From positions 1 to 26,337 of the forward strand of contig CADBQE010000194.1 of NCBI GenBank assembly GCA_902796695.1: a DNA stretch of 26,337 nt, written 5' to 3'. Of the stretch, positions 2,338-21,697 are shown piece after piece. The DNA comes from an uncultured Lachnospiraceae bacterium (lineage in GTDB: Bacteria; Bacillota; Clostridia; Lachnospirales; Lachnospiraceae). The notes beneath the pieces are model-generated. The model was not told the origin of the DNA. It saw nothing but the letters and a program-made list of their open reading frames with translations, and made no database searches. Within the stretch, counting starts at the first letter, position 1. Each line of letters opens with the position of its first letter. The position numbers and the translations under genes were made by a program.

Positions 2338-3876
2338 TTACCGTTTCAGTTTCTTCAGGAGCCGCCCGGCCATGCCCTTGACGTACCGGAATTCTTCCGT
2401 CTTCCGATACAGGATCACGACCAGCAGATTCGGAACTATGCAGGCGATGATCAGCCGAATTACAAAGCCGAGCAGCGGACGGGTTGCCGGCAGCAGCAGC
2501 CCCAGGCCGTAAGCCGCCGCGCAGCTGAGCGCCGTCACGGCCGCATAAACCGCATATTTAACGAAGTAGCCGCAGACCGGTCTTTTGAACACTCTCCGGT
2601 AAACCAGCCAGGGGTCGTACCACACCTGCGTTGCCAGGCGGGATACGGTCGTCGCCGCAAAGATCCCCAGGATCCCCCAGGCTTTTCCCCAGAAGTAATC
2701 CAGCACGATATTGAGCACCGCCATGATCGCCGGCCGCATCCATCCCTGCACAAAAAGCCCGTTGGCTGTGCGGAAGGACTCCACCGGAAACACCATGACC
2801 GCGATATAATAATTGGCCGTCATCACGCCTATGATCAGCATGCTGACCTTGTAAGACTCGTTGAACCAGATATCTCCCACGAAAGGATTCAGCAGAACGA
2901 ACATGCAGGTGCAGGTAAAGCAGCACACCCAGAATGCCAGGAAATTCATTCTGTTGAAGACCGCTTCCTGCTTATCGTTGTCGGATGTCGCGGCCAGATT
3001 GCCGATGCTGGGCTTGGCCGCGTTTACGATCTGGGACACGATATGCCGCACGCTGTTGATGATCAGGGAGAAGTTTCCGATGATCGCGACCTGCACCGTC
3101 CCCACGAATGCCGAGATAAAAATACTGTCCGTACTGTAGATCACGACCCCCGCCGTGGAATACACCGTAAGGCAGGCCAGGTCGCGGATCAGTTTCCTTG
3201 TATCTTCTTTGGACAGCGTCTCCCCGGTCTTTGCGACATACTCCGGATACAGCTTATCGGTCTTCCGCGACAGGATCAGGTTGCGGGCGACGGTCGCGAT
3301 CAGGTGGACGATCAGGTAAGCGTAGAAAGCCCGGAAGATGAACAGCAGAATGACTTCAATAATGCTTTCGGCAATATAGATGATCGTTGTCCAGTTGGAA
3401 ATGATCCGTGACTTCTGGTTGGCCCGAAGCAGCACCGTCTTGTAGACCAGAAAGTATGAAAAGGCCGTCGTCACCACATACATCAGGAAGATCCCGCGGA
3501 TATCCTCCCGGATGTTCGGGACGCCTTTTACAATATACTGCAGAAAGGGTACACAGAGAACACCGGCGCAGAGAACTACCACGCCGATGATCGTAAAGGC
3601 CTTCCGATAGAAGGTCATCAGCGCGCAGATACGCTTTTTGTCCTGACGGGCGACCGGGCCGAACAGCGCATAGACCATGGACGTGTCCAGTCCCAGCTCC
3701 ATCAGGGACAGAACCTGGAGAATATCCGTAAAAAGGCCGGAGATGCCGGTATATTCATTTCCGAGGAAATAAATAAATACGGTCCGCATTCCGAACTGGA
3801 TCAGCGTATGGACCAGCCGGTTCAGCAGACTGGCTCCGGAGTTCTTGATCACATTACTGGTTCTGCTGTCCGCCAT
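2338..3876 (-). CDS. wzx: Wzx-type polysaccharide flippase (MOP superfamily), 512 aa
   Basis: Many hydrophobic segments; RTVFIYFLGNEYTGISGLFTDILQVLSLMELGL and STDSIFISAFVG are typical of Firmicute Wzx; last gene of the operon. Confidence 0.88.
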   Translation of the reverse strand: MADSRTSNVIKNSGASLLNRLVHTLIQFGMRTVFIYFLGNEYTGISGLFTDILQVLSLMELGLDTSMVYALFGPVARQDKKRICALMTFYRKAFTIIGVVVLCAGVLCVPFLQYIVKGVPNIREDIRGIFLMYVVTTAFSYFLVYKTVLLRANQKSRIISNWTTIIYIAESIIEVILLFIFRAFYAYLIVHLIATVARNLILSRKTDKLYPEYVAKTGETLSKEDTRKLIRDLACLTVYSTAGVVIYSTDSIFISAFVGTVQVAIIGNFSLIINSVRHIVSQIVNAAKPSIGNLAATSDNDKQEAVFNRMNFLAFWVCCFTCTCMFVLLNPFVGDIWFNESYKVSMLIIGVMTANYYIAVMVFPVESFRTANGLFVQGWMRPAIMAVLNIVLDYFWGKAWGILGIFAATTVSRLATQVWYDPWLVYRRVFKRPVCGYFVKYAVYAAVTALSCAAAYGLGLLLPATRPLLGFVIRLIIACIVPNLLVVILYRKTEEFRYVKGMAGRLLKKLKR

Positions 3877-5131
3877 TGCTTAACAGCCTCCTCTGTGCTC
3901 TTTGTTCCAGCGCAATATTGACGCTGATGCCCGCGGCCGCCCAGATCGCCATCCGGTGCCACAGGGTTCCCGACAGCAGCAGCTGGCAGCTGGCGGCAAA
4001 AAAGATCAGATAGATCCCGACCCATTTCGAACGGTCATGCATCCGGAAGATCTGAACGGAACGTGCAATCATTCCCGCAATGATCAGGATGCCCGGGATC
4101 ACGCCGGTATCGACCAGGATCTCCAGCACAATGCTGTGCGGATGTCCGACATCCACGTAATGATAGATCACGTGACGCGTTCCCATCGCGCCGTATCCCA
4201 GCGGATTGGTCCGGATCATTTCGACCGCGGCATTCCAGATCGGCTCTCGCCCGCTGTCGTCCGCCAGAGCGCCCGAGATCAGTTTTTTGATAAAGCGGGA
4301 ATTGATTCCCAGGGAACTGACCAGAGACTCCAGCAGGGACAGGAGCCACTGGTAGGAAATCGCCAGGAACGCCGCAATGATCAGGAAAAACAGGATCTTG
4401 ACCGCTTTATTCCTGGTTTTCTTCATGCCGAACGCCGCATAGATCACGCAGAAAATACCGATATCCAGGATCGGTCCCCGGGATCCGCCCAGGAAGATCA
4501 TGATCACGGCTCCCACAAAGAATATCCAGTCCACCGCCCGCTTTTCCTTTAACGCCGCATACAGCGTAATCAGGGCATACAGCAGCGTATCATAGCCGAA
4601 GGACAGATTGTAGCTCATGCGGTATTCCGACCCGTCCGGGTTCACCGAAATGACCCAGTATCCCCGGTTCAGCGCCGCTATCAGGCGGTACAGGGAATAC
4701 ATCAGCATGATATAGGCGCAGACCCGCAGGGCCTTCAGCAGCCGGTCCGGATCCCTCTGAAGCCGCAGGAACAGATAGGCATAGATTCCGTTGTCGGGCC
4801 GCAGGACGTAATCCCATACGCCGTAGGTTTCCCGCTGATAAAAATATTCGTATTCCGGATGCAGCAGCAGCGTGATCCCCAGATAGGCGATCAGAAACAG
4901 ATAGACAAACAGCGCATCGATCGGGAATCTTCCGGGGTTCCTTAAGATCACGACCGCAAGCGGAAGGTACGCAAGCAGAATGCAGACCGCTCTGGCATAG
5001 GAACGCAGCCCGACATAGGACAGCGCCTTGCCGACGATCCAGTTGAGGGGGGAACTGCAGATGAACAGCACCAGTGACAGTTCGATCAGGAAGTCCCACG
5101 ATATTCGTTTTTGTGTGCTTAAGGCCTGCAT
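3854..5131 (-). CDS. wzy: Wzy polymerase / O-antigen ligase family membrane protein, 425 aa
   Basis: Polytopic, with Wzy_C-like motifs GGSRGPIL, DSGREPIW, PLGYG and HPHSIVLEILVDTG; overlaps the wzx start by 23 bp. Confidence 0.8.
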   Translation of the reverse strand: MQALSTQKRISWDFLIELSLVLFICSSPLNWIVGKALSYVGLRSYARAVCILLAYLPLAVVILRNPGRFPIDALFVYLFLIAYLGITLLLHPEYEYFYQRETYGVWDYVLRPDNGIYAYLFLRLQRDPDRLLKALRVCAYIMLMYSLYRLIAALNRGYWVISVNPDGSEYRMSYNLSFGYDTLLYALITLYAALKEKRAVDWIFFVGAVIMIFLGGSRGPILDIGIFCVIYAAFGMKKTRNKAVKILFFLIIAAFLAISYQWLLSLLESLVSSLGINSRFIKKLISGALADDSGREPIWNAAVEMIRTNPLGYGAMGTRHVIYHYVDVGHPHSIVLEILVDTGVIPGILIIAGMIARSVQIFRMHDRSKWVGIYLIFFAASCQLLLSGTLWHRMAIWAAAGISVNIALEQRAQRRLLSNGGQQNQ

Positions 5132-5176: not shown

Positions 5177-6394
5177 TTATGAAAGAAATTCAAAATCATA
5201 TTCCGCCCGGATCGTTTCCTCCCGGAGCTGCGCGCCCAAGACCCGGCTGACGATCTCCGAAACATCCCGGAGCAGGTTTTCCCGCTTTTTCCCGCTTACC
5301 GTATCGGCCAGGCGGTCCGCCGGCCAGACGCACAGGATCCCGTTTTCTTCCTCCACCATTTTCAGGACCGAAAACGTACATTTCCGCAGTTTTTTCTCTT
5401 CGGTATACAGATGCACGGCCAGACCGTATTCCGGCAGATTTTCGTGCAGCAGATACGCGGAGTTGGGCGACATGCTGAAATTCCCGAGCGAGTAGAAGCA
5501 GGGAACCCGCCCTTTGCGTGCGGCTTTCTGTACCACATGGGGGTGCGATGCCAGGATCACGTCGCAGCCGGCTTCGACGGCCCGGTCAAACACATATTCC
5601 GTAAACGCTCCGGGATTTTCATTGAACTGGCCGCCCGTATGCGGGAAGAATACGACCAGATCCGCTTCTTTCCGGGCGTTCCGGATATCCTCCGTCATTT
5701 TTTCCAGGAAAGGGTCTGCCGTGGATCGGTCCAGGAAATTGTCTTCGTGCGCCCGGTTGTACGGCAGATGAAGCGCCTTTTTGATCCGGCATCTCTTTTC
5801 ATAATCCAGCGAGGCGGTCAGTCTGCTCACGATCCGTTCCGCCGGGGAGGGCCTGCGCTTTTCCGCCGTAAAGTAGCGTTCCGGCTGAGGCCGCAGCAGG
5901 CAGACGGCGTTTTTCTCCTCTTCTTTCAGGCAGATCCGGTTGTCGCTGTAGTTTGTTCCGTATGTATAGGAAACCACCGCAATCCGGCACTCTCCCGCGG
6001 AGAAGAAGCAGACCCCGTTGCGCCGATCCGGATCGTCGCTGATTCCGGCAAAGCCAATGCCTTTCTCACGCAGAACGCCGGCGGTACGGACAAGACCGTC
6101 CAGGCCTCTGTCCAGGCAGTGATTGTTCGCCGCCGTCACTGTCAGGATGCCCGCATCCTTAACGGCATCCGCGAATGCATCCGGCGCATTGAAGGAAAAC
6201 AGGCCGGCGGTATATCCCGCGGCCTCGCCGGCCAACGGGGTTTCCAGGTTGCCGACCGCATGATCCGAAGCCTCAAACATGGGCCTGATCTGTTCAAATA
6301 CTCCGGAGAAATCATAGCCGTTTTCTTTTTCGGCCGCCCGCAGCATCCGCGGTTCGCACATGATGTCTCCGACAAATGTTATCCGTTCTCCCAT
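5177..6394 (-). CDS. CapA/PGA_cap family metallophosphoesterase-fold protein, 405 aa, no N-terminal anchor
   Basis: FVGDIM, GNLETP, ANNHCLDRG, FPHTG, ASHPHVVQ and FYSLGNF are the CapA-family motif set. Confidence 0.88.
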   Translation of the reverse strand: MGERITFVGDIMCEPRMLRAAEKENGYDFSGVFEQIRPMFEASDHAVGNLETPLAGEAAGYTAGLFSFNAPDAFADAVKDAGILTVTAANNHCLDRGLDGLVRTAGVLREKGIGFAGISDDPDRRNGVCFFSAGECRIAVVSYTYGTNYSDNRICLKEEEKNAVCLLRPQPERYFTAEKRRPSPAERIVSRLTASLDYEKRCRIKKALHLPYNRAHEDNFLDRSTADPFLEKMTEDIRNARKEADLVVFFPHTGGQFNENPGAFTEYVFDRAVEAGCDVILASHPHVVQKAARKGRVPCFYSLGNFSMSPNSAYLLHENLPEYGLAVHLYTEEKKLRKCTFSVLKMVEEENGILCVWPADRLADTVSGKKRENLLRDVSEIVSRVLGAQLREETIRAEYDFEFLS

Positions 6395-6413: not shown

Positions 6414-7487
6414 TCATGATCTTTCGCGGATGAATTTCAGTATCTCTTCCGTATAGCGGCCGAAAAACGGTCCGGAGCATACCTGGGGCACCATGGAATC
6501 CGGATTCTTCAGATTCATTTCCACAATGACCGGTTCTCCGCTTTCGGATACGCACACATCCCAGAACGCAAACCCGAACCGCGCGATTTTCCGGTGCGCC
6601 TCTTCCACGGTCCGGCAGATCTTGTCAAACGACGGGATTTTGCGGCCCGCAAAATCGTATCCGCTCGGAATCGCGTCATATTTATTGTAATCATGGTCGA
6701 TGGCGTAATCCATAAAGGTTCCGTCTTCCCGGATCCCGATAAAGCGCCGGTCGTGGCCGCTGTTGTCGGCAAAGGCGCCGGCCTGTCCCACCTTTACGAA
6801 GGCGGACATGACATGGGCCTCATCCTGCAGCAGGACGCTGTTCACGCGGATCGTATTCACGGACGATTCGTTCAGCTTTGCCATTTCCGGATGCTGTCTG
6901 AGCGGGATCTGGACCACAAAATTCCTGCCGTGGCTCTCTTTGATCTTCTCCAGCGAGAACGGGCTGCGGAGCAGGACGACGCCTTTCCCCGTATTGGTAT
7001 CGACCGCGGGCTTTACGACCAGTTCCTCAAAGCGGGAAAGGGTCTCTTCCGCCTGCTTTTCCGAAATCAGGCGGTGATCCGCGTCCAGCCATCTGCCGTT
7101 GACATTGCGCAGGACGCATTCGACGGTCGGAGTTCCCTTCAGGAAGAAGTCCAGGTAAGCCTTGTCGCTCCAGGCGGCTCCGTATCCGACGTCATTCATG
7201 GCCGGTTTGATGTCCTGGAAGAAAAACGGGGCGGGAATGAAATCCGGCCGGATCATCCCCGTTTTGGCATAATAGAAGCGGTGCCACTGCAGCGGGACAT
7301 CTTTATAGCCGTATGCGCCCCAGAACTCCCGAATTTCGGCGATCTGGGAGGCGGTCAGTTCCGGAACGGCATCACCGCTCTTCCGGATCATGTCTTCTAT
7401 CAGGCGGATCAGCCTTTTCTGCTCTTTTTTCCGCCTGGCCGTTTTCCAGGAGCTTTTTATGCTCTTTTTCAGTCTGCCTAATCCCAC
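6414..7487 (-). CDS. Sugar-transfer-associated ATP-grasp protein (ATPgrasp_ST-like), 357 aa
   Basis: SDKAYLD, KPAVDTNTGKGV, QHPEMAKLNESSVNTIRV, FWDVCVSESGEPVIVEMN. Confidence 0.85.
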   Translation of the reverse strand: MGLGRLKKSIKSSWKTARRKKEQKRLIRLIEDMIRKSGDAVPELTASQIAEIREFWGAYGYKDVPLQWHRFYYAKTGMIRPDFIPAPFFFQDIKPAMNDVGYGAAWSDKAYLDFFLKGTPTVECVLRNVNGRWLDADHRLISEKQAEETLSRFEELVVKPAVDTNTGKGVVLLRSPFSLEKIKESHGRNFVVQIPLRQHPEMAKLNESSVNTIRVNSVLLQDEAHVMSAFVKVGQAGAFADNSGHDRRFIGIREDGTFMDYAIDHDYNKYDAIPSGYDFAGRKIPSFDKICRTVEEAHRKIARFGFAFWDVCVSESGEPVIVEMNLKNPDSMVPQVCSGPFFGRYTEEILKFIRERS

Positions 7488-7512: not shown

Positions 7513-8493
7513 TTACCGGCACTGCATGATCATCCGGTATTTTCCGATCCCGTCCTGCTGCATGCCGTTGCTGCCCTGTCTGATATTGGCCTCAATCAGT
7601 TCGCAGCCGGTTTCCGTAATCGCTATGTCCCACCCGATATAACGCAGATGGGCCGGAATGCGGCCGGCTTCCCGGACCGTTTCCTTCACCTGTTCCCAGT
7701 TCGGGATCTGAAGCCCGATCATTCTGGTATTCGTGGAGGGATGATAAAAAATATCGCTTTCCCCGTTGAAGCGGACGCCGCCGCCGATGATGACTCCGCG
7801 TTCGATATCCACCGGATACTGAACGCCGTCCGCATGCAGGTTGTCCACCACACTGCCGGCTCCGCCGCCGCGCAGGCTGGCTCCGACGATATGGACATCT
7901 CCTTTGGCGTCCCGCACCGTGCAGATCCGGGCCGTGTTGACCGAGGTCGGATTAACGTCCCGCAGCACCGGATGCTGGTCGATAAAAGCCTCCAGCAGGA
8001 ACTTTTCCCGTACGGCCGTCTCATAGAAGCGTTCCGGCCCCTCTTTCAGATCTTCCGGCGTCAGAAGCCGCACGCCTTTTCCCTGGGTCTGATTGTCCGG
8101 CTTGATGATGACCTTTTCGTTTTCCTGGAGGAAAGCTTTAAAGTCCTCAAGGGAAGCGTCCGGCGCGTAGATCCAGCTGCGCCCGATAAACCGGGCGAAC
8201 GTTTTATTGAACAGCGCCTTGCTGGCGATCTGTTCGATCTCTTCCCGCGGCGCCGTGTTGAAGATTTCCTCTATCCGGGCCGATTTTCTGGCAGTCACAA
8301 ATGTGGCGCGCTCCCGCCGGCAGAGTTTATAGAACCGAAAAGCGAAATACTGATCGGGATTGGCGCCGTCCCGCAGCCGGCTCAGGAAGCAGTCCCGCCG
8401 GATCTGTCCTTCCGAGCAGCCGTAGCGCTCCGCGATCTCCCGGATCTTTCCGCCGTATATGCTCAGTCTTTTTTTATAGTCACTCAGTTTCAT
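7513..8493 (-). CDS. Sugar-transfer-associated ATP-grasp protein (ATPgrasp_ST-like), 326 aa
   Basis: SKALFNKTF, KPDNQTQGKGV, QHPVLRDVNPTSVNTARI, IGWDIAITETGCELIEAN. Confidence 0.87.
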   Translation of the reverse strand: MKLSDYKKRLSIYGGKIREIAERYGCSEGQIRRDCFLSRLRDGANPDQYFAFRFYKLCRRERATFVTARKSARIEEIFNTAPREEIEQIASKALFNKTFARFIGRSWIYAPDASLEDFKAFLQENEKVIIKPDNQTQGKGVRLLTPEDLKEGPERFYETAVREKFLLEAFIDQHPVLRDVNPTSVNTARICTVRDAKGDVHIVGASLRGGGAGSVVDNLHADGVQYPVDIERGVIIGGGVRFNGESDIFYHPSTNTRMIGLQIPNWEQVKETVREAGRIPAHLRYIGWDIAITETGCELIEANIRQGSNGMQQDGIGKYRMIMQCR

Positions 8494-8500: not shown

Positions 8501-9589
8501 TCAGGCTTTCCGCCTGCTGTCGTTCAGAATCATTCTTACGGTCTCGCGGCCCAGCTTTTCCAGCGTGCGGCCTTCCGCCCGCATGCTTCTTCCCAGAGCG
8601 GCCGATGCGATCTCGATCAGGGATGTCGCGATGGGCGTAGGGACCTCAAGGGCCTCTCCCAGCGCTTCCAGCATGACCAGGCCCTGCGGCACGTCCTCGG
8701 AAATATAGCGCGAATCCACTTTGGTGGGGCCTTTGGCACGGGTGTCCATTTCCGCGTAATCCAGGAAGACCTGCTTTGCGTCTTCCTTCTCATCCAGAGA
8801 ATTGCGGTATTTGCAGGCTTCCACGTACGGCAGACGCTCGAATCCCAGTTTTTCCAGGATATTCATTTTTTCCGCATCCAGCGCTTCCAGGATGCGCCAG
8901 GTGGCGGGGTTGTCCCTGGTATAGGCCTCGTGATACAGGCAGAAATCGCCCATAGACTTTTCAATCCGCGGGATGCTCATGACAGAGCCGACCGTATGCA
9001 CGACCATATTCGGGTTGTGGAGCGCCGCTTCCACGACCGAATCCAGATAGACGAGGCGTTCGTCCAGCTGATCCAGCTTCGCGATGGCTTCCTCCCGTCT
9101 TGCCGCCGGATAGATCCCGATCGGATTGCGCACATTGCGGAATCCGACCCGGAACAGGCCGGGTTCCATGATCCGGCCGTCGATAAACGAGCTTTCCGCT
9201 TCCGCGATAATCAGGTTTTTCCCGCTGCCGTGCTTGAGCATATAAGCTGTGGACAGATAGCCCGGGTTGATCAGCACGAGCTGGCCGTCCTCCAGGAAGG
9301 GCATAAGCCTTTCGATCAGCTGCTCATGGAAATTGGTCTGGATGTAGATGATTACGATCTCTTTTCCGCGGACTTCTTCCAGGTCCCGGCAGACCTTATG
9401 GATGCAGGCGGTCTTGACACCGCCGAACTCATTGAGCGTCATCTTGCCGTTATGTTCGACCAGGTAATTGAAATTGTCGTCATGCATGGCATGCGAGGTT
9501 TTGATCAGGGTTACTTCATGTCCTTTCAGCGTCAGATCTGCTGCGACCGCACATCCCGCATTTCCGGCTCCTACCATCGCTATTTTCAT
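8501..9589 (-). CDS. NAD/NADP-dependent octopine/nopaline (opine) dehydrogenase family protein, 362 aa
   Basis: Rossmann motif VGAGNAG, ALHNPNMVVH, and C-terminal SRYISEDVPQGL (Octopine_DH signature RYxxEDVPxGL). Confidence 0.9.
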   Translation of the reverse strand: MKIAMVGAGNAGCAVAADLTLKGHEVTLIKTSHAMHDDNFNYLVEHNGKMTLNEFGGVKTACIHKVCRDLEEVRGKEIVIIYIQTNFHEQLIERLMPFLEDGQLVLINPGYLSTAYMLKHGSGKNLIIAEAESSFIDGRIMEPGLFRVGFRNVRNPIGIYPAARREEAIAKLDQLDERLVYLDSVVEAALHNPNMVVHTVGSVMSIPRIEKSMGDFCLYHEAYTRDNPATWRILEALDAEKMNILEKLGFERLPYVEACKYRNSLDEKEDAKQVFLDYAEMDTRAKGPTKVDSRYISEDVPQGLVMLEALGEALEVPTPIATSLIEIASAALGRSMRAEGRTLEKLGRETVRMILNDSRRKA

Positions 9590-11900: not shown

Positions 11901-11919
11901 TATCTTAACCTCCGCTTTT

Positions 11920-13198: not shown

Positions 13199-14008
13199 TC
13201 AGTCTCCTTTCACCTCTTCCCACAGGTCCGGATACATTCTCTTGAAGCGGTTCAGCGTCGTGGCCACGCCGGTGTGGTCATATCCGGCAAAATAGCCGTT
13301 GCCTTCCGCGGCTTTGCTGCGGTGCCTGACGTTGAAGGTCATTTTAAACAGCAGCAGAATCATTTTGAGATCCACCGCGAAGCTGACATGCTCCACATAC
13401 CAGATATCGTTTTCAAACTGGTTCTGATACTGGCAGATCTCCGGATCGCCCGCCAGCACGCGGGGGCATTCCAGGCCCGGCCGCACCGCCGCACGCTTTT
13501 TGTGGCGTTCGCTCATCCGTTCCTGATAGGAAACCGGCAGCGGCCGGGGACCGATGATCGACATGTCGCCCTTGACGATGGACCAGAAATTCAGCAGTTC
13601 GTCGAGAGACAGCTTCCGCATGAATTTCCCGAATTTCGTGGTTCTTTCCTTCGGAGAGAGCATCTTCCCGTCCGCATCCGTTTTGTTGTTCATGTTGCGG
13701 AATTTGACCAGGACAAACGGCTTTCCGCCCCTCCCGATCCGGGACTGCTTGTAGAAGATCGGTCTGCCGACGTCAAAGAATGTGCAGATTCCGAAGATCA
13801 CATTAAACGGCAGCGTGATCAGAAAAGCGGGGACTCCGACCAGCAGGTCCAGTCCGCGCTTGACATATCTGACATAGAAATTGTCCGCCGGATGCACTTC
13901 CGCACTTTCCGCGTTGACTTTTGCCAGATTGTTCTCCCGCAGATAGCTGATCAGTTTTTCCTCGTCTCCGGTGATCAGATTGTAATTGCCTATCGTTCCC
14001 GTTTCCAT
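13199..14008 (-). CDS. Small monotopic (PglC/EpsL-like) phosphoglycosyl transferase, Bac_transf family, about 269 aa
   Basis: YVKRGLDL, PIFYKQSRIG, KFRNM, LDELLN, GDMSIIGPRP, VRPGL, DIWYV, DLKMI. ATG at 14008 (AAGGA upstream) preferred over the TTG at 14029. Confidence 0.9.
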   Translation of the reverse strand: METGTIGNYNLITGDEEKLISYLRENNLAKVNAESAEVHPADNFYVRYVKRGLDLLVGVPAFLITLPFNVIFGICTFFDVGRPIFYKQSRIGRGGKPFVLVKFRNMNNKTDADGKMLSPKERTTKFGKFMRKLSLDELLNFWSIVKGDMSIIGPRPLPVSYQERMSERHKKRAAVRPGLECPRVLAGDPEICQYQNQFENDIWYVEHVSFAVDLKMILLLFKMTFNVRHRSKAAEGNGYFAGYDHTGVATTLNRFKRMYPDLWEEVKGD

Positions 14009-14048
14009 CCCGTCTGTTCCTTCCGCCAAGATTGTGTGTGTCCGAGTG

Positions 14049-15242
14049 CTACCGCAGTGAATACGGGCAGATCAGATCCATGCGGCTCATGATCTGCCGC
14101 AGCGGCTCCTTGAAGCCGGTCTCCGTGCAGGCCTGCTGGACCAGTTCGCCCGACGGATTGATTTCTACAACGACCCATCCCTGTTTCGAATAGGCCAGGT
14201 CAAAGCTTTTGTATTTCATCTCCGGCAGGACCAGGGAGGCCTCCCGGCAGATCCGGAGCGCTTCCTCCCAGTCGGGGAAAGCAAATCCGATATACGGGAT
14301 GTGCGTATCCGGATGCTCCGCATATTCATTCCCGAATTCGTCCACGCCGTGTGCGGACACGATGCCCTTCTCCACGTCGATCATGGCAAAGATCCCGCCG
14401 GCGCCGGCATTGTCCACAAAGGATCCGGGTCTTCCGGTCCTGATGAATCCGTAGGCGGGAAGCACTCCGTCCCGGGTCAGATAGGTCGCTACGCGGACCG
14501 TGTTGATGGAAGAGGTGTTGAAGCGGGCCATTTCATCGCCCTGTTCGATCCGTTCCTCCAGCAGCACCTTTCCGTGGCGGATGATCTCGTTGAAATCACG
14601 GCGCAGATCATCCGTGACCTTCTGCAGCCAGACCCCCATCCCCATGGAGGAATTGACGATTTTTACCACAAAGACCGGATGCTTCCGGGCAAAGGCTTCG
14701 TACTTTTCAAAATCCCGGCCGGTTTCCAGCGTTACCGCTTCCCGCTTATACCAATCCTTGAAATAGCGGTACACTTTGCTCTTGTCGGCCAGCGCGGACT
14801 GCGTAAAATCATTCATCGTATGCTTTACGCAGGTTCTCTCCGTATTGGAAATAAAGGTCCGCATGTCCCTTCTGTCCAGATGGAAATAGGCAAAATCCTT
14901 GGGAGGGAACCCGTAGGCATAATAGGCATATTCGATTTCATCCCGCAGCGCTTCCACTCTGGCGCTGTCAAAGCCGTAGCGCGGTTCCGCGATCAGATTC
15001 CGGAGCCGGCGTTCCAGGTCCTCCGCGCTTGCGGGATGCTTTTCCCGGTGTCTGCGGATGATTTCCGGTCTCAGTTCCGGGTGTTCTTCACAGGTTTTCA
15101 GTTCCGGAAGCGGAAGCATGAATGCGGTAATTCTGCCGATCTCCTTCGCCGTCAGATATCGCTTGAGCGACATCGGCGCGAACGACATCACTTTCCGGAA
15201 GGAATCCTTTGCCTTGCGTTTTATGGCTTTCCTGCTGATCAT
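14049..15242 (-). CDS. Sugar-transfer-associated ATP-grasp protein (ATPgrasp_ST-like), 397 aa
   Basis: ADKSKVY, KIVNSSMGMGV, LLEERIEQ, NTSSINTVRV, VDNAGAGG, FDLAYSKQGWVVVEIN. Confidence 0.83.
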   Translation of the reverse strand: MISRKAIKRKAKDSFRKVMSFAPMSLKRYLTAKEIGRITAFMLPLPELKTCEEHPELRPEIIRRHREKHPASAEDLERRLRNLIAEPRYGFDSARVEALRDEIEYAYYAYGFPPKDFAYFHLDRRDMRTFISNTERTCVKHTMNDFTQSALADKSKVYRYFKDWYKREAVTLETGRDFEKYEAFARKHPVFVVKIVNSSMGMGVWLQKVTDDLRRDFNEIIRHGKVLLEERIEQGDEMARFNTSSINTVRVATYLTRDGVLPAYGFIRTGRPGSFVDNAGAGGIFAMIDVEKGIVSAHGVDEFGNEYAEHPDTHIPYIGFAFPDWEEALRICREASLVLPEMKYKSFDLAYSKQGWVVVEINPSGELVQQACTETGFKEPLRQIMSRMDLICPYSLR

Positions 15243-15243: not shown

Positions 15244-16215
15244 TCAGGCGTTCAGTTCCTTTCTGAAGGTAAATTTCAGACTCCGCTCACAGCCCACGCT
15301 CTCCTTGAAATTGCCGAGCCCGTAATTCGGGATACTGTCCTTGCCGGCGGTCGCCTTGTCCAGGATCTCATAGCCCCGGTCCCCGTAGTAGCGGATCGTG
15401 TAATAGGTCAGCAGGTTCATGCCGTTGCAGTCCATGTAATCCGGATGGGTCCCCGTATAGATTCCCTGAACGATTCTGTCATTGATCCGGTACAGGTACT
15501 CCGCCACGATGCCGACCCCGTCCTTGCGGACAATAAACGCATCGTGGGCCACCAGTTTCAGCGTGTCCGAGAGCTGTTCGTAGGACATATGGACCGGGAA
15601 TCCTTTGGCGTCATGCCCGATCTGTATGATCCGGTATGCTTCCCGATAATCCTCTTCCGTTTCGCAGCGGATGATCTCCAGCCCCGATTTTTCCGCTTTG
15701 CGCAGCGCCTTCCGGCCTTTCTGCGTGATCATCTGACCGTAGGTTTCTTCGTCCGTATTCAGCTTTTTCAGGTCCAGGAAGAAATTCAGATCGATATTTT
15801 CAAAGCGGTACTGCTTCCGGTAAAGAGCGCTCACCCAGCCGCTGAGCTGGTGTTCGTCATAGAACAGCGGCGGAAAAATAAACCGGATCGATGCCGCGCC
15901 CTGTTCCCGGCAGTAGTCCTCATAGATCTCCAGCGCCGCGTCGATCGTTTCCTGCTTCGACTCGTTGATGATCGCGACCGGGTAGGAGTACGGCGCGGAA
16001 AAAGGCGTCCGCATCTCCTCTCCTGTTTTCCCGGCGATCAGTCCGAACCGGGCGGAATTCTCCCGCATGAAGATCAGATAATGCACTTCATCGGCTTTGT
16101 CCCTGTTCAGTTCCGTAAAAGCCGGTTCGTTGAAGAAGATGCGTCTGTCCGGAACCAGTTCCCTGTATTCGTCGGCGGACACCCTTCTGATATACCACAA
16201 GCTCTTGTCTTCCAT
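15244..16215 (-). CDS. FemAB/BioF2-like double-GNAT acyl- or aminoacyl-transferase, 323 aa
   Basis: PFSAPYS, RKALRKAEKSGL, NLLTYYTIRYY and PNYGLGNFKESVG match the FemAB-like GNAT pattern (R..rKa.k.Gl ... GL..FKes.G). Confidence 0.65.
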   Translation of the reverse strand: MEDKSLWYIRRVSADEYRELVPDRRIFFNEPAFTELNRDKADEVHYLIFMRENSARFGLIAGKTGEEMRTPFSAPYSYPVAIINESKQETIDAALEIYEDYCREQGAASIRFIFPPLFYDEHQLSGWVSALYRKQYRFENIDLNFFLDLKKLNTDEETYGQMITQKGRKALRKAEKSGLEIIRCETEEDYREAYRIIQIGHDAKGFPVHMSYEQLSDTLKLVAHDAFIVRKDGVGIVAEYLYRINDRIVQGIYTGTHPDYMDCNGMNLLTYYTIRYYGDRGYEILDKATAGKDSIPNYGLGNFKESVGCERSLKFTFRKELNA

Positions 16216-16306: not shown

Positions 16307-16987
16307 TTAATCCAGCATGAAGCTGTCTTCCATGTTCAGCCAGGCGACATAATCAAAGAAGATCTCATAGTCACGGAAGCCGTCTTTTCTGAGTTTGCTC
16401 CAGTTTTTGATGCGGTCGCGGCCGTAGCGCTTTACGTAAAAGATCTCTTTGCCGTCCGCCCGTTCCTCATTCCAGGTAAACATGATCTTCCGCTTCAGGT
16501 CCAGATGTTCGTCCAGATGCCGGAACTGCTCCACCTGCTCATCCGTGAGGTTCTGGTCCGCGACGACGACAAAGATATTGTCCGTCATTCTTTCCTTGCG
16601 GTCTTCCCACTTGGCGCGTGCTTCTTCTTCGGTCTTGAAGTGCTCGAAAAAGATTTTTATGGTTTTGTCGCCTTCCCCGATGGTTCCCTTGGGATAGGTG
16701 GTGCTTTCGTAAAACCGGATCTCCTGCTTCAGATAATAGGGCATATCCGTCAGGAATTTCAGGAAATCCGCGTCCTTGATGCTCATATTGATCGTGGGAG
16801 ACAGGAACTGTCTGCCCATCGTATGATAGATCAGGCCGGCCATGCAGTCGCTCGTCAGCATCGTAAAGTCCGGGAGGCTGCTGCTGCGTTCGCGGATCTC
16901 TTTGACATATCTGTCATATTTCCCTTTGTTCAGAAGTTTTACGCCTCCGCGCAGGAAGTTCTTCAGGGCACCATCTTGCATTCTCAT
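16307..16987 (-). CDS. DUF1919 family protein, 226 aa
   Basis: TSDCMAGLIYHTMGRQFLSPTINM, IFFEHFKTEEEARAKWEDRKERM (family pattern S.nC.gG.iY..lg..f.SPtiN ... F.HY....eA..KW.rR..R); AGAGGA RBS. Confidence 0.8.
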   Translation of the reverse strand: MRMQDGALKNFLRGGVKLLNKGKYDRYVKEIRERSSSLPDFTMLTSDCMAGLIYHTMGRQFLSPTINMSIKDADFLKFLTDMPYYLKQEIRFYESTTYPKGTIGEGDKTIKIFFEHFKTEEEARAKWEDRKERMTDNIFVVVADQNLTDEQVEQFRHLDEHLDLKRKIMFTWNEERADGKEIFYVKRYGRDRIKNWSKLRKDGFRDYEIFFDYVAWLNMEDSFMLD

Positions 16988-17001: not shown

Positions 17002-18093
17002 TCAGTACCGATTGATTACATCGATCACATACCGCAGTTCTTCATCCGGCAGGCCGGCATAGATCGGCAGCGAAACTTCTTCCCGGGCATAGCGGGTCGC
17101 ATTCGGGAAGTCTTCCCAGTGACAGCCCAGGTCGGCATAGCAGTCCGCCACATACGGCGGGATCGGATAATGGACCTGCGTATGGATGCCGTTTTCCTTC
17201 AGGTAGGCCAGGAAGTTTTCTCTGTCCCGCACCAGGACCGGGAACAGATGATAGACATGCTCCGCGGCGGCATAGACGGGAGGGATGATCACTTTCGGGT
17301 TCCGGAGGCCTGCCTTATAGGCTTCCGCCTGGCGTCTGCGTTCTTCGGTCCCTTCGGCCATATGCTTGAGGCCCACCTTCAGCAGGGCGGCCTGCAGTTC
17401 ATCCATACGGCTGTTGACGCCGTTGATCTCGTTGTGATATTTGATGCGGCTTCCGTAATTGCGGAGCAGTCTGACGCGTTCCGCCAGTTCGTCGTCGTTC
17501 GTGACGATCGCGCCGGCGTCGCCGAAGGCGCCCAACGGCTTGGTCGGATAGAAGCTGAAGCATCCGATCGTTCCGAAAGTCCCGGTCAGCTGTCCCCCGT
17601 AGGTGGAGCCGTGGCACTGCGCGCAGTCTTCGATCAGCAGCAGGCCATGCTTCCGGCAGATCTCCGTGATTTTATCCATGCGGCTGCTCTGGCCGAACAG
17701 GTGGACCGGAAGGACGGCTTTGGTATGGGGCGTGATCTTTTCCTCGATCCGGTCCGCATCCATTTCCATGTACTCGTCCGCGTCCACAAAGACCGGTGTC
17801 GCGCCGTTTTCCGTCACGCCGATCACGGAAGCGATATAGGCGTTGGCCGGGACGATCACTTCATCCCCGGGGCCGATGCCCAGGGCCCGGACCGCAAGGA
17901 TCAGAGCGTCCGTGCCGGAGTTCAAGGCGACGCAGTGCTTTACGCCAGCCCATTCGGCAAATTCCTTTTCAAACGACTCCATCTCCTTGCCCAGAATATA
18001 CCAGCCGGAGTTTAAAGCCCGCAGGGCCGCTTCTTCATATTCTGCCTTGTGCAGTTCAAATGTTCTCTTCAGAACGACGGAATTGACGTTCAT
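17002..18093 (-). CDS. DegT/DnrJ/EryC1/StrS PLP aminotransferase, FdtB/QdtB-like (dTDP-3-amino-3,6-dideoxyhexose synthase), 363 aa
   Basis: GWYILG, NSGTDAL, IEDCAQCHG, FSFYPTKPLGAFGDAG (PLP lysine), NSRMDELQAA; adjacent to FdtA-like cupins. ATG at 18093 preferred over the GTG at 18132. Confidence 0.9.
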   Translation of the reverse strand: MNVNSVVLKRTFELHKAEYEEAALRALNSGWYILGKEMESFEKEFAEWAGVKHCVALNSGTDALILAVRALGIGPGDEVIVPANAYIASVIGVTENGATPVFVDADEYMEMDADRIEEKITPHTKAVLPVHLFGQSSRMDKITEICRKHGLLLIEDCAQCHGSTYGGQLTGTFGTIGCFSFYPTKPLGAFGDAGAIVTNDDELAERVRLLRNYGSRIKYHNEINGVNSRMDELQAALLKVGLKHMAEGTEERRRQAEAYKAGLRNPKVIIPPVYAAAEHVYHLFPVLVRDRENFLAYLKENGIHTQVHYPIPPYVADCYADLGCHWEDFPNATRYAREEVSLPIYAGLPDEELRYVIDVINRY

Positions 18094-18116
18094 GGGATTC
18101 CGTTCTCCTTCCTGTT

Positions 18117-18560
18117 TCACTCGCTTTTCCACGCTTCTTCTTCCTTAATGTGTTCCATCTCGAGCAGAAAATCATCGAAGCTTCTGATATATTCCCCCGC
18201 GTCATAATACTCATTGGTCAGGACCATCAGAACGGAGTCCTCGCTGAAATCATACATTTCCTTCCAGACCATTCTGGGCAGATAGACGGCCTGGCCCGGC
18301 TCATTCAGTTCGTACACTTCTTCATGAAGGTTTTCATCGATCGTCTTGACTTTGCTGGTTCCCTTTACGTTGAACAGAACGAATTCCGATTTGCGGTTGG
18401 AATGCTTTCCTCTCACTTTTCCGACATTCCCCTGTCCGTAGATGTAAAACACCCGCTTGATCTCAAAGGGAACATCGCGGAGTCCCTCCACCCGGATGGC
18501 TCCTCCGTTGCTGAATTCCGGAAAAGACAGCATTTTTACTCCCGCATAGTAACTGTTCAT
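18117..18560 (-). CDS. FdtA/QdtA (WxcM-like) cupin, sugar 3,4-ketoisomerase family, 147 aa
   Basis: DVPFEIKRVFYIY, VRGKHSN, VWKEMYDFSEDSVLMVLTNEYYDAGEYIRSF. Confidence 0.88.
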   Translation of the reverse strand: MNSYYAGVKMLSFPEFSNGGAIRVEGLRDVPFEIKRVFYIYGQGNVGKVRGKHSNRKSEFVLFNVKGTSKVKTIDENLHEEVYELNEPGQAVYLPRMVWKEMYDFSEDSVLMVLTNEYYDAGEYIRSFDDFLLEMEHIKEEEAWKSE

Positions 18561-18620: not shown

Positions 18621-19805
18621 TTAATCGATAATCCCGCCCAGGACCTCCGCGGATTCGATGGTGGCGGACCAGTCGCGGATCCGGAGGAACTGCAGATACT
18701 CGCTGTAATCGCTGTTGAGCTTGTCGTAATCATAATGATCCGACGCGGCTACGCACAGAACGCTTCCCTGCTTTTTCCATACCATTTCGCGCCAGACGTG
18801 CGGATTGAGAATGACGCCTTCCGACGGTTTGGAAAGGCTGATCGTTTTCCGTTCCTTTCCGGTATCCACGATCACGTCGATGCTGCCGTACGGGCAGAAC
18901 AGAAAATGCCAGCTCTGCTTATGGGCATGAAAACCGCGCTGCTTCTCCTGCTCGGATTCGAAGATCGTGTAAAAGCAGCGGATCTGCATGGGAATATCGC
19001 GTTCGCTTTCAAAGAAGGACAGGCCGGACGTCTGGTCTTCCTTGGACAGGGCGGTCTGGATGCCGATGATCTCGATATCCGGGGCCGTCCGGATCGGATT
19101 CCGGAAAACGGAGATTCCCATATTTCTGGATTCGCGCAGCAGCACTTCCGGCACGTCTATGCTGTTCGGTCCGCAGATATAGACTCTGTCGATCTGCTCC
19201 CAGGCCAGGAAAGCGACCGCATCCTTCCGGTCCACGATGACCGGGATATTGTCCATTGTATACTCGTTGGTTTTATCGGTAACAAAAATGCCCTGAATGT
19301 CCATTCCGGCCTGGGCGGCCACGGCCAGCCCGTCGCGGGCGTATCCGTCCGTCGTGACCAGCAGAACGGACGGCGGCGTAGACCGTGCGGCATTTTTCCT
19401 CCGGACAATGCTTCTCAGAAGAATATGGGCCAGAATGATCAGGATCAGGTATAATGCGTAGGCCGTATAGATTGTCAGGCGGGAGAATTCCGTTCCCTGC
19501 TTCGTGGAAAACAGGACGATCGCGAGGATCGCGAACGAGATCACCACTTGCTTGAAGCTCTGGACAACCTCAATGCGCTTCCGCCGTCTGATCACCCCCT
19601 TGAGGGTATTGAAGACCAGGCTGACGAAAACGTCGATCACTATCATGCAGATAATGACAAAGATATAGCGTCCGGAATCATTGCTGCGGCTGCCGACGGT
19701 TTCATAAAAACGGACAGCAAGAAAATTGCTCAGCAGCAGGCAGGCCAGATCCAGAAGGATATATCCCACATATTTAATTTTGCCCCGATGCAGTTGTTCC
19801 TTCAT
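18621..19805 (-). CDS. Fusion protein: WcaJ/CpsE-like N-terminal membrane + Rossmann-like region joined to a C-terminal FdtA/QdtA cupin, 394 aa
   Basis: Four hydrophobic segments in about aa 12-130, then LLVTT...EQIDRVYI...MGISV (priming-GT N-terminal pattern), then DIPMQI...QRGFHAHK...VWREM...SVLCVAASDHYD (cupin). Confidence 0.72.
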   Translation of the reverse strand: MKEQLHRGKIKYVGYILLDLACLLLSNFLAVRFYETVGSRSNDSGRYIFVIICMIVIDVFVSLVFNTLKGVIRRRKRIEVVQSFKQVVISFAILAIVLFSTKQGTEFSRLTIYTAYALYLILIILAHILLRSIVRRKNAARSTPPSVLLVTTDGYARDGLAVAAQAGMDIQGIFVTDKTNEYTMDNIPVIVDRKDAVAFLAWEQIDRVYICGPNSIDVPEVLLRESRNMGISVFRNPIRTAPDIEIIGIQTALSKEDQTSGLSFFESERDIPMQIRCFYTIFESEQEKQRGFHAHKQSWHFLFCPYGSIDVIVDTGKERKTISLSKPSEGVILNPHVWREMVWKKQGSVLCVAASDHYDYDKLNSDYSEYLQFLRIRDWSATIESAEVLGGIID

Positions 19806-19858
19806 GGTTTCGGTCTTTTCTTTACAGACTGCCGTACGGTCACAAACCCGGGTCAGCC

Positions 19859-21697
19859 TTACGGGCTGACCCAGTCGCCGTTGTAGACCTGGCGGATCAG
19901 GTTCTGGGCATAAGACACCGTGCCCCAGTTCGGATACATGACATAGGCTGCGGTTCCGATGCTGAAGCAGTATTCCAGGCCGCCGCTTCCGTTCACGTTG
20001 TAACTGGCGATGTTCCAGCTTTCGCCGCCCAGTACGCTGCGGCCGAACGCCGCGATCGTTTCATAGGGCACCGTGGTGCGGGCCAGGCCGCCCACCGCGC
20101 TCATGACCTGGTCCAGGTTGGCAATGGTGGAGAAGGAGGCCAGTTTGGAGATCACAGCCTTGATCAGAGCCATCTGATTGCCGCCGCGGTCTCTGTCGCC
20201 TCCGGGCAGATGACGCCGCTCCCGGGCAAACGCCAGGGCCTTCGCGCCGTCCACCGTATTGTTCCCGGCCACGAAATGATACCGGTATGCGGTTTCGTAG
20301 CGGGGTTCCGCGGATTCATCCGTGGAGGATTCCGGATCCGTGATCAGTTTCTGATAGGAGCCGGTATCGAATTCATAGGAAGAATAGACCGTAACGCCGC
20401 CCATGGCGTCGATCAGTGTTTTCATGCCGTCAAAACCGACCCGGAAATAATACTGGCTGGTAACACCGTACAGATTTCTCAGGGCATCCATGCTGGCCTG
20501 CACGCCGTAGTAGCCCGCGTGGGTCAGTTTGTCCCGCGTACCGCCCAGGGACGGGAATGCCACGAAATAGTCCCGGGGGGTGTTCAGCAGCAGCACCTGA
20601 CGGCTGTTCATATTGACGACCGCCAGAATGTTCACGTCGCTGTTGCCCCGGTCGGCCAGACCGCCGCCGCGGGTATCCAGGCCGGAGATATAAATGGTAA
20701 AGATGCGGCCTTCCTGGCCCTGCGGCACCGTGATGGGGCCGGCTGTGGGCGGCTGGGTGGGAGGCGGGGTCGTGCCGATGGGAGCGTCCGTATAGATCGG
20801 AGCCGTCCACGACGGCGCTTCGGTCTCGATGACTTCACCGGAAGCTTCCGTAGATTCGGACGTTGCGTGCTTGATCAGGATCCAGCTGCGGGTCCCGTGC
20901 GTGGGATCCTCCGCTTTTTCGGAAGCATCCGCTGCCGTGGAAGCAGCCGATTCGCCGGGAAGCGTTGAGATCTGGGTCGGTCTTTCTGCGTAGAAATCCG
21001 TGATCAGGCGGATCTTCTCCGTCACATCGGAGAATCCGCTGATGCCCGAAAGCATGGCAATGTGCTCATGAGCCAGAATGACGGCCCGGACTTCGCCGCT
21101 GTACAGAGCATTGACTGCCTCGGCAGGGCTGCCGTAGGTTCTGACCTGAGGCTGCTCTTTCATTTTTGCGGAGATATCATCCAGCGCCTGTTCCGCCTCG
21201 TCTCTGTCGAGCACTTCCAGAATGCCGATCACGGCGCCCGAAAGGTCTTCTATCGAGGCTGCCGTATCATCTTTCAGCACATAGACATCCATGGCGACCG
21301 TCTGCTGCATCTCCGTGGAGGGCTCCTGCCACTGATTCATGCTGTTCTGCGTTTTATTGATTATTCCGGTTCCGATAATAAGCCCCGCGCTGACCAGCAC
21401 GGCCAGCAGCGCACCGATAATAAAGCGGACCTTTCTTTTAAAGTTCCAGCACAGGAATCCGACCGCGCCGGCCAGCAGCAGCAGGCCCAGCGCGATCAGC
21501 ACCATGAATTTTCCCGGCACCATCTGGAAGCGCAGCAGCCGGAGGAAAAACCAGCCTTCTACCAGCAGAAACAGTCCGGTCACGAGAATGCCGGGCAGGT
21601 TCAATGCCGCTCTTCTGTTCCGGCGGCTGCGGGACATTCTGGCTTCCGGTTCAAGATCCGACAGCTTGCCGTCATCCATTCCGTTGCTATATTTCAT
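19859..21697 (-). CDS. LCP (LytR-CpsA-Psr) family cell-wall polymer attachment protein, CpsA-like, 612 aa
   Basis: Three N-terminal TM segments, an accessory extracellular domain, a P/T/A-rich linker, and an LCP domain (YISGLD, SDVNIL, TPRDY, DKLTHAG, IDAMGGV, ALAFARER, DRDRGGNQ). Confidence 0.92.
   Translation of the reverse strand: MKYSNGMDDGKLSDLEPEARMSRSRRNRRAALNLPGILVTGLFLLVEGWFFLRLLRFQMVPGKFMVLIALGLLLLAGAVGFLCWNFKRKVRFIIGALLAVLVSAGLIIGTGIINKTQNSMNQWQEPSTEMQQTVAMDVYVLKDDTAASIEDLSGAVIGILEVLDRDEAEQALDDISAKMKEQPQVRTYGSPAEAVNALYSGEVRAVILAHEHIAMLSGISGFSDVTEKIRLITDFYAERPTQISTLPGESAASTAADASEKAEDPTHGTRSWILIKHATSESTEASGEVIETEAPSWTAPIYTDAPIGTTPPPTQPPTAGPITVPQGQEGRIFTIYISGLDTRGGGLADRGNSDVNILAVVNMNSRQVLLLNTPRDYFVAFPSLGGTRDKLTHAGYYGVQASMDALRNLYGVTSQYYFRVGFDGMKTLIDAMGGVTVYSSYEFDTGSYQKLITDPESSTDESAEPRYETAYRYHFVAGNNTVDGAKALAFARERRHLPGGDRDRGGNQMALIKAVISKLASFSTIANLDQVMSAVGGLARTTVPYETIAAFGRSVLGGESWNIASYNVNGSGGLEYCFSIGTAAYVMYPNWGTVSYAQNLIRQVYNGDWVSP

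Follow-up and report, generated by a model that had tools for sequence, protein, structure and literature searches.

Loci for Wzx/Wzy-dependent capsular polysaccharides (cps) of the Streptococcus pneumoniae type have a variable centre between conserved flanks, and ATP-grasp ligases beside polysaccharide genes are already known. The operon described here lies on a 26,337-bp contig (C194, the whole of which is called the window below) from an uncultured Lachnospiraceae bacterium. As in the S. pneumoniae-type loci, an LCP/CpsA gene stands first, a Bac_transf gene supplies the primer, wzy and wzx come late, and rmlA (rmlAB in relatives) comes last. The centre is different: five ATP-grasp enzymes, a Fem-type transferase, and amino-acid-modifying dehydrogenases are encoded in the window instead of glycosyltransferases (GTs), and there is no CpsB, CpsC, or CpsD. 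The only biochemically proven case that we found of an ATP-grasp enzyme forming an amide within a capsule locus is the C-terminal domain of Cj1438 from Campylobacter jejuni HS:2, a TupA-like amidoligase acting on the growing glycan (PMC11800379). Cj1438, however, is one ligase, belongs to PF14305 and not to ATPgrasp_ST, activates a uronic-acid carboxylate in a GT-rich, ABC-transporter-dependent pathway, and adds one small amine without building a chain.

We propose that the operon encodes a Wzx/Wzy-type, LCP-anchored wall polymer pathway in which amide-bond enzymes, not GTs, elaborate a single amino sugar with an opine-containing oligopeptide, and we put the probability of this reading at roughly 0.55. 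The product is probably a previously undescribed sugar-peptide polymer. The initial annotation, made from the letters of the DNA, had proposed a core of one or two sugars bearing an opine-containing oligopeptide assembled by ATP-grasp enzymes; the absence of GTs and the recurrence of the layout are borne out below, while the product itself is still inferred.

Seventeen minus-strand open reading frames (ORFs) are packed over positions 2338-21697, and the checked ORF coordinates leave intergenic gaps of at most ~90 nt or small overlaps. Pfam and NCBIfam were used to assign every operon protein, giving, in order, LCP (g01), CoA_binding_3 plus FdtA (g02), FdtA (g03), DegT (g04), DUF1919 (g05), Acetyltransf_6/FemAB (g06, weak), ATPgrasp_ST (g07), Bac_transf (g08), ATP-grasp_4/LAL_C2 (g09), OCD_Mu_crystall (g10), ATPgrasp_ST (g11), Octopine_DH (g12), ATPgrasp_ST (g13 and g14), PGA_cap (g15), Wzy_C (g16), and Polysacc_synt (g17). 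A putative sigma-70 promoter can be read directly at 21763-21791 on the minus strand (TTGCAT, 17 nt, extended −10 TGtTATAAT). It is missing from the consensus-scan list because the −35 hexamer matches at just 3/6 positions. An intrinsic-terminator-like hairpin is located at 2266-2298 on the same strand, with 11 bp plus an A/U extension (hairpin 2273-2298) followed by a U-run. It folds at −16.8 kcal/mol with a z-score of just −1.8, and the consensus scan lists the same hairpin on the plus strand. The description of 17 co-oriented genes between one promoter and one terminator is therefore correct in the initial annotation, as are the gene assignments there: wzx, wzy, LCP, and one priming phosphoglycosyl transferase (PGT), together with four ATPgrasp_ST proteins, a classical ATP-grasp, a FemAB-like transferase, an opine dehydrogenase, an ornithine cyclodeaminase (OCD)-family enzyme, and a CapA protein.

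The absence of a recognizable GT from the operon is real, since three lines of evidence agree. None of the 17 proteins matches a GT family at E ≤ 0.01. In a six-frame search of the whole genome, no match to PF00535 (GT2) or PF00534 (GT1/4) falls on the window contig. Only g05 and g06 are without a firm family; both were folded from homologue alignments, and structure comparison including Foldseek detects neither a GT-A nor a GT-B fold in the models (pLDDT, a predicted confidence score, of 92 and 95, respectively). The earlier remark that no ORF shows a GT pattern is thus upheld by profiles and by folds.

The same layout is found in relatives. We compared the loci of genomes that carry a g12 orthologue with those on metagenome contigs reached via homologues of g13 and g05; they are named below by genome (G) or locus (L) number. 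Eight related loci from goat-rumen metagenome-assembled genomes (MAGs) and metagenome contigs contain 0-1 GT each. One complete cps-type locus with no GT is on a 171-kb JGI contig; it starts with CpsB, LCP, Wzz, and CpsD and continues with a 394-residue FdtA fusion, DegT, a g06 homologue (71%), the PGT (63%), and a soluble DegT-like protein. ATP-grasp_4, an epimerase, ATPgrasp_ST, Acyl_transf_3, ATPgrasp_ST, AlaDh_PNT, and two further ATPgrasp_ST proteins follow, and Wzy, Wzx, RmlA, and RmlB form the end. The locus on an 83-kb ENA contig encodes seven ATP-grasp enzymes, a CitMHS transporter, YdjC, and PGA_cap, again with no GT. The complete loci on these two contigs thus span CpsA-D to RmlAB with 5 to 7 ATP-grasp genes and zero GT. 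The RGIG3226 locus has the same core and no GT within its visible part, and locus annotation found no GT in the G004 locus or L032. A survey of this kind had been suggested with the initial annotation, and it confirms that the GT-poor, ATP-grasp-rich layout recurs in related complete loci, with the slot for an opine-type dehydrogenase conserved.

The comparison with G004 is informative about variation. LCP, g02-g04, g06, g08, Wzx, RmlA, and NTP_transf_5 are common to both loci at 62-92% identity, whereas the G004 centre has ligases only 27-62% identical, two PGA_cap proteins, two Acyl_transf_3 proteins, and an epimerase. Conserved flanks around differing centres are the pattern of a serotype-like variable locus. 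Among 301 genomes sampled in the order, 28 carry ATPgrasp_ST, in single copy except for this genome (four) and one tandem fusion, which is found in G112 of the same family (C2:2332-4239; two ATPgrasp_ST domains in one 756-residue open frame). Within the genus, 7/19 species hold three to six copies.

Gene content beyond this core varies among the loci. L029 (14841-18301) and L025 (18622-20993), both with the core FdtA-DegT-DUF1919-Fem-like-PGT-ATP-grasp, add a C-C_Bond_Lyase, a 2-hydroxyacid dehydrogenase, MmgE/PrpD, and a CitMHS-type transporter. These additions suggest that, in some types, the acyl groups come from organic acids (citrate- or methylcitrate-like) and not from amino acids. In the ENA locus, DegT is preceded by a dTMP-kinase-like gene (L028:7319-7984) with no counterpart in the window. 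A soluble protein of ~325 residues follows the PGT at L015:8841-9815, L021:2162-3151, and L029:12556-13527; it has no Pfam or NCBIfam match and is absent from the window. This protein (324 residues; G004, L021, L029) was considered, and rejected, in two roles, those of a GT and of a second Fem-like enzyme: hhalign against the g06 family gives nothing, and protein-atlas grouping places it with divergent DegT-like pyridoxal phosphate proteins.

The GTs elsewhere in the genome should be noted, since they bear on a conventional explanation. The MAG comprises 1.71 Mb in 303 contigs and is 67% complete, and the six-frame search gives 12 GT matches in it (ten GT2 and two GT4), all on other contigs. 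Contig C270 (7.9 kb) contains four GT2 genes, on C61 a large WbaP-type PGT adjoins a GT2 gene, and on C118 a GT2 gene and an RmlD-like gene adjoin rmlB. Three further Wzy_C matches are present in the genome, two on C175 and one on C8. Since a large PGT of their own accompanies some of these GTs (C61) and separate clusters contain others (C270, C118), they are apparently parts of other glycan loci of a conventional kind. The alternative is that g08 primes with an ordinary UDP-sugar, that GTs acting in trans, for example those on C270, build a heteropolysaccharide repeat and add the dTDP-amino sugar to it, and that the role of the ATP-grasp enzymes is limited to the attachment of individual amino acids, in the manner of amidated uronic acids. 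This agrees with the GT genes on other contigs, with the incompleteness of the MAG, with the single GT2 of some related loci, and with the sole experimentally shown role of such capsule ligases, single-residue amidation by a TupA-like ATP-grasp (PMC11800379). However, complete loci of the same class on the long contigs contain no GT from CpsA to RmlB, a Pfam scan found no uronic-acid genes in the window, the other GTs adjoin their own large PGT or RmlB, and five ligases plus a Fem-type transferase would be a large set of enzymes just to place single residues on a sugar that has one amine. We therefore regard this alternative as unlikely, though it deserves weight.

The DUF1919 protein g05 (16307-16987; all operon genes are on the minus strand) is soluble and matches PF08942 at 7.3e-40. 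Its confident model resembles only the uncharacterised structure 2g6t (Z-score of 22) and Haemophilus influenzae HI_1244. All other matches are generic three-layer folds of flavodoxin-like or SGNH type at Z-scores of about 5 (≤5.3), and the protein was rejected as a hidden GT. Cys48, His116, Arg130, and Arg133 are invariant, a pattern suggestive of acyl-transfer or hydrolytic activity. In L029 a DUF1919 gene comes immediately after FdtA-DegT, and the family also appears within an ordinary GT4-rich cps locus (L030), so it looks like a modifying enzyme.

The Fem-like protein g06 (15244-16215) was likewise rejected as a hidden GT, because its model has the tandem-GNAT fold of FemX and Sbb17. The top Foldseek matches are Sbb17/Sba18 with streptothrisamine (E of 3e-16, TM-scores of 0.71/0.79), followed by FemX (1e-13, TM-score of ~0.7), FemA, and MprF, and the Pfam FemAB match is below the cut-off (20.7 versus 24 bits). 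The fold is common also to acyl-CoA-dependent tandem GNATs, and 2wpw and VipF are among the matches. The gene is kept beside DegT and the PGT in G004, L027, L029, and L032 at 54-87% identity, and the 320-residue family to which it belongs includes 959 representative clusters at E ≤ 0.001. From this model, g06 is predicted to move an amino acid from aminoacyl-tRNA onto an amino sugar, so the first amino-acid residue would probably be derived from tRNA and not from an ATP-grasp reaction. The earlier idea of a peptide assembled by ATP-grasp enzymes is thus kept for the ligases and probably does not hold for the first residue. The FemX-like enzyme Orf11 catalyses tRNA-dependent glycylation of streptothrisamine with Gly-tRNA as donor (PMC12945691). 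The likeness of g06 to Orf11/Sba18/Sbb17 (PDB 9wqw-9wqy) lies in the fold and in the predicted transfer from tRNA to an amino-sugar amine, but the identity is only 17%, and those enzymes act in a secondary-metabolite pathway and not on a lipid-linked wall polymer.

The four ATPgrasp_ST ligases are g07 (14049-15242; PF14397 6.2e-35), g11 (9653-10741; 5.3e-34), g13 (7513-8493; 6.6e-42), and g14 (6414-7487; 1.6e-23), with scores of 83.8-144.1 bits against the PF14397 cut-off of 31.4. In an alignment of 28 ATPgrasp_ST proteins from seven loci, the catalytic Lys, Lys, Arg, Asp, and Glu-x-Asn are invariant in 28/28, including these four, as would be expected of active ATP-grasp enzymes. In the maximum-likelihood tree of these proteins, the four window paralogues fall into four separate, well-supported orthogroups within two deep clades, and gene position is kept. 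g07 forms its own orthogroup with a 56% identical gene in L032, g11 and the L021 gene before AlaDh_PNT share 72% identity, and g14 is 65% identical to the gene at the same position in L021. g13 has 93 homologues, and ligase homologues are labelled as Oscillospiraceae or Clostridiales MAGs. The fifth ligase, g09 (11920-13194), is a classical ATP-grasp with an L-amino-acid-ligase C-terminal domain (PF13535 2.2e-9, PF18603 1.2e-6), and its PDB matches include the L-amino acid ligase 3vot (1.6e-8).

Two dehydrogenase-type enzymes are encoded among the ligases. g12 (8501-9589) is an opine (N-carboxyalkyl-amino-acid) dehydrogenase with the two-part architecture of this family over its full length, an N-terminal Rossmann domain (NAD-binding matches at residues 2-105) and a C-terminal Octopine_DH helical domain (PF02317 5.9e-41, residues 182-331). 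It aligns along its whole length with CENDH 1bg6, an N-(1-D-carboxyethyl)-L-norvaline dehydrogenase (8.7e-28, residues 4-348), and orthologues in 4 congeneric genomes are 78-89% identical. g10 (10773-11945) is an ornithine cyclodeaminase/mu-crystallin NAD enzyme resembling SbnB (PF02423 1.2e-39; PRK06199 7e-96, below the cut-off), and its nearest solved structure is 4m54 (SbnB). The g11 clade is always directly upstream of a dehydrogenase, either Octopine_DH (window, G004, G017, G018) or a short AlaDh_PNT paralogue (L021, L023), and the g13 clade follows it. Since the dehydrogenase is swapped for a non-homologous one while its ligase neighbours are retained, we argue that this slot supplies the building block that those ligases install. 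The short paralogue in the opine-dehydrogenase slot of related loci is divergent, with 326 residues and ~116-120 bits against the alanine dehydrogenase cut-off of 392 bits.

A soluble product would be another use for these genes: the ligase, opine, and OCD genes could make a separate opine-type peptide or metallophore and be embedded in the operon by chance or for co-regulation. Opine metallophores are indeed among the products of Octopine_DH-family enzymes, and free dipeptides are the products of L-amino-acid ligases. On the other hand, the ligase block is inside one transcription unit between the PGT and Wzy/Wzx, a place that it retains across at least eight loci whose gene content differs, Wzx is the only exporter, and the Pfam family ATPgrasp_ST is defined by its presence in surface-polysaccharide neighbourhoods. 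A separate soluble metabolite is accordingly, in our judgment, highly improbable. The ATPgrasp_ST family was reportedly defined by Iyer et al. in 2009.

The CapA-family protein g15 (5177-6394; PF09587 5.2e-60) has the metallophosphatase fold and no transmembrane segment. It matches NF038314 epimerase_MslH, a lasso-peptide C-terminal epimerase, at 4.6e-19 (below the cut-off) and the PDB 8gq9/8itg family at 1.8e-14. By these sequence matches, g15 is a candidate cytoplasmic peptide epimerase, closest to MslH and not to a part of poly-glutamate export; the family name CapA given earlier is right. A poly-gamma-glutamate capsule (CapBCA/PgsBCA) was rejected because CapB and CapC are absent and the sole PGA_cap protein is g15. 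Teichuronopeptide was rejected as well, since Pfam gives no PF14305 (TupA) match and no UDP-glucose dehydrogenase or uronic-acid gene in the window; among the compared loci, a TupA-like gene is found only in that of G017.

The gene set for dTDP-3-amino-3,6-dideoxyhexose (Fuc3N/Qui3N) is all present, and a dTDP-amino-dideoxyhexose pathway is the sole dedicated sugar pathway in every locus of the class. RmlA, the glucose-1-phosphate thymidylyltransferase (1232-2188, minus strand; PF00483 1.5e-68), has its own promoter directly past the operon terminator (2217-2245; TTGACA, 17 nt, TATTAT; 11/12 consensus matches). RmlB is encoded at C118:5308-6270 (TIGR01181, 498.9 bits, above the equivalog cut-off); the gene is here on a separate contig and adjoins rmlA in L021, L023, L025, and L029. 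The DegT/FdtB-type aminotransferase, which uses pyridoxal phosphate, is g04 (17002-18132; PF01041 2.6e-114). Two FdtA-type cupins are encoded. g02 (18621-19805) fuses a 3,4-ketoisomerase cupin (PF05523 3.5e-30) to the non-catalytic N-terminal part of a large PGT (PF13727 9.6e-10), which consists of ~4 transmembrane segments and CoA_binding_3 and covers positions 1-221 of 445 in TIGR03025; such fusions are also found in G004 (74%), L027 (38%), and L032 (37%). g03 (18117-18560; PF05523 2.6e-33) stands alone. The cupin in g02 retains the HxH motif (RGFHAHK), as does the stand-alone FdtA in L029, whereas in g03 the alignment gives Asn for the second His (RGKHSNRK). The ketoisomerase proper may be the fused copy, with g03 as a variant whose activity is changed or lost. 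Pfam shows no Hexapep/LbH match in the operon, that is, no FdtC/QdtC-type left-handed beta-helix N-acetyltransferase; DUF1919 and the FemX-like g06 occupy that position.

The primer candidate g08 (13199-14029; PF02397 5.9e-45) is a small monotopic PGT with one re-entrant hydrophobic helix (segment 63-81). Its nearest solved structure is PglC (8g1n, 1.8e-35), as expected of an initiating PGT. The natural donor of PglC is an N-acylated amino-6-deoxy sugar. A transmembrane scan identifies the PGT, Wzy, and Wzx as membrane proteins and gives no transmembrane segment for any ligase or for g05, g06, g12, and g15; g10 has a single marginal hydrophobic segment. Soluble enzymes of this kind agree with assembly on the cytoplasmic face.

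Export and anchoring are represented by three proteins. g17 (2338-3876; PF01943 9.9e-9) is a Wzx flippase of the MOP superfamily, 76% identical to its G004 orthologue. g16 (3854-5131; PF04932 8.6e-19) is a polytopic membrane protein of the Wzy_C family that would act as a polymerase, or perhaps as a ligase, and shares 39% identity with the L021 Wzy; with g17 it provides the flippase and Wzy pair expected of a Wzx/Wzy-type locus. g01 (19859-21697; 612 residues; PF03816 5.9e-31) is a Cps2A-like LCP transferase of glycopolymer to peptidoglycan, with the LytR-CpsA-Psr catalytic domain and an N-terminal membrane anchor (~3 N-terminal transmembrane segments); in NCBIfam, TIGR00350 is above the cut-off, and LCP_trans_Cps2A gives 1.8e-68 but is below it. 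Pfam finds no chain-length regulator or tyrosine kinase (Wzz, CpsC/D) in the window; these are present in the related L027 and L028. The LCP gene at the first position and the lack of CpsC/D fit a wall-anchored polymer better than the glycopeptide capsule suggested in the initial annotation.

A different outcome is conceivable, in which no polymer forms: after flipping, a single lipid-linked glycopeptide would undergo one transfer, either by LCP to peptidoglycan or, with the Wzy_C protein working as a ligase of the WaaL/PglL type, to protein or lipid. The established breadth of PF04932, which includes ligases and O-oligosaccharyltransferases, allows this, as do the lack of chain-length genes in the window and the place of the Wzy_C gene of G004, which is on the opposite strand and not part of the operon. 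We nevertheless think it rather improbable: L027 and L028 encode the set classically linked with polymerisation (Wzz, the CpsD kinase, Wzy, and Wzx), and the Wzy gene adjoins that of Wzx in the window, L021, L023, and L032.

The preferred reading, a wall polymer of single amino sugars elaborated through amide bonds, would proceed as follows. As judged from the sequences, RmlA/RmlB, the ketoisomerase (cupin of g02, g03), and the aminotransferase g04 would yield dTDP-3-amino-3,6-dideoxyhexose. Its fold and conserved position suggest that g06 would load the first amino acid from aminoacyl-tRNA onto the 3-amino group. As no GT is available, the simplest path to the lipid carrier would be direct sugar-phosphate transfer by the PglC-like PGT; g08, beside the membrane-tethered g02, would thus put a single sugar phosphate on undecaprenyl phosphate, a reaction for which a dTDP donor would be new, and the g02 fusion would bring sugar synthesis to the primer. 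The five cytoplasmic ligases (g07, g09, g11, g13, g14) would then add carboxylate or amine building blocks stepwise. Among these may be the opine-type (N-carboxyalkyl) amino acid made by g12 and a product of the SbnB/OCD-like g10. With one amine and two hydroxyls on the sugar, one Fem-type transferase and five ligases imply that the amide bonds are formed in series or in branches and so yield an oligopeptide. One residue may be epimerised by the MslH-like g15, possibly giving a D-residue. Wzx would flip the lipid-linked glycopeptide, Wzy would join the units, and LCP would fix the chain to peptidoglycan.

A more specific scheme is possible, and we offer it tentatively: the product would be a lipid-II-like second wall polymer, in which the PglC-type PGT takes a dTDP-linked, tRNA-aminoacylated 3-amino-3,6-dideoxyhexose, position-specific ATPgrasp_ST ligases build a non-ribosomal, opine-containing, partly D oligopeptide on this one lipid-linked sugar, the units are joined into a polymer by Wzy, and the chain is anchored by LCP. 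In rumen Clostridia, the ligases would then have taken over from GTs the task of generating diversity at a serotype-like surface locus.

Several points weigh against the wall-polymer reading. The incomplete MAG leaves room for a trans-acting GT, and the ten GT2 and two GT4 matches are in the same genome. Two related locus types hold one GT2, L025 (also with a GLF gene) and the G017/G018/G005 type (with a TupA-like ligase). The locus is known from genes alone, and the organism is uncultured. Our literature search gave no paper linking monotopic PGTs to dTDP-sugars, and none naming the ATPgrasp_ST family or establishing the substrates of its enzymes. We know of no established role for the DUF1919 family. 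Wzy_C (PF04932) spans ligases and O-oligosaccharyltransferases as well as polymerases. The predicted complex of g02 and g08, modelled on the idea of a split large PGT with ketoisomerase, scores 0.00, which is evidence neither way.

The remaining genes of the window surround the operon. Directly upstream is a bona fide alanine dehydrogenase gene (21961-23076, minus strand; AlaDh_PNT_C 1e-82), separated from the operon by its own terminator, a hairpin and T-run at 21875-21887. Beyond it is an ordinary copper-resistance pair (23206-26171, minus strand), unrelated to the polymer operon: a P-type copper ATPase that has two HMA domains, and a metal-sensing repressor of the CsoR type. The long plus-strand ORFs at 21940-23436 and 24325-25899 have no family matches and are shadow frames. 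At the other end, an NTP_transf_5 gene for an uncharacterised nucleotidyltransferase (85-1158, plus strand) converges on rmlA and has a 72% identical copy in G004. There (C37:25150-27513), a Wzy_C gene follows NTP_transf_5 on the same strand; the window contig stops before that point.

Surface glycopolymer loci are read almost wholly via their GTs, and a GT-less class would escape glycan-prediction pipelines. If the proposed reading is true, abundant uncultured rumen and gut Clostridia carry unexplored sugar-peptide-opine wall polymers, diversified by swaps of ligases and amino-acid enzymes, and g08 would be the first PGT to use a dTDP-sugar. Testable functions follow for three large families, namely ATPgrasp_ST, the 320-residue Fem-like family, and the cytoplasmic CapA/MslH-like proteins, and the enzymes could become tools for glycopeptide synthesis.

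Among known polymers, Providencia/Proteus-type O-antigens contain 3- or 4-amino-6-deoxyhexoses N-acylated by amino acids or by N-(1-carboxyethyl) amino acids (alanopine). Their repeats are multi-sugar, require several GTs, and bear a single acyl residue, unlike the product proposed here; to our knowledge, no genes have been assigned to their opine residues. Our literature search (DUF1919, ATPgrasp_ST, ATP-grasp with Wzy, opine dehydrogenase with O-antigen) found no paper on a cps-type locus where amide ligases replace GTs. The teichuronopeptide of Halalkalibacterium halodurans (TupA) and the poly-gamma-glutamate capsule (CapBCA) are also wall-associated polymers that include amino acids or are made up of them, and CapA-family and ATP-grasp genes are associated with them. 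The window differs in having no TupA-family match, uronic-acid genes, CapB, or CapC, and its CapA homologue is cytoplasmic and nearer MslH. The closest parallel in logic is the assembly of lipid II by MraY, the Mur ligases, Ddl, FemXAB, and MurJ, where a nucleotide- or lipid-linked sugar carries a peptide made step by step by ATP-dependent ligases and a Fem transferase that depends on aminoacyl-tRNA, a MOP flippase exports the unit, and polymerisation takes place outside. The enzymes are nevertheless unrelated, with a PglC-type PGT in place of MraY, ATPgrasp_ST in place of the Mur ligases, and Wzy in place of SEDS/PBP. The sugar predicted for the window is a 3-amino-3,6-dideoxyhexose and no cross-linking enzymes are encoded, so the relation to lipid II is one of analogy, not membership.

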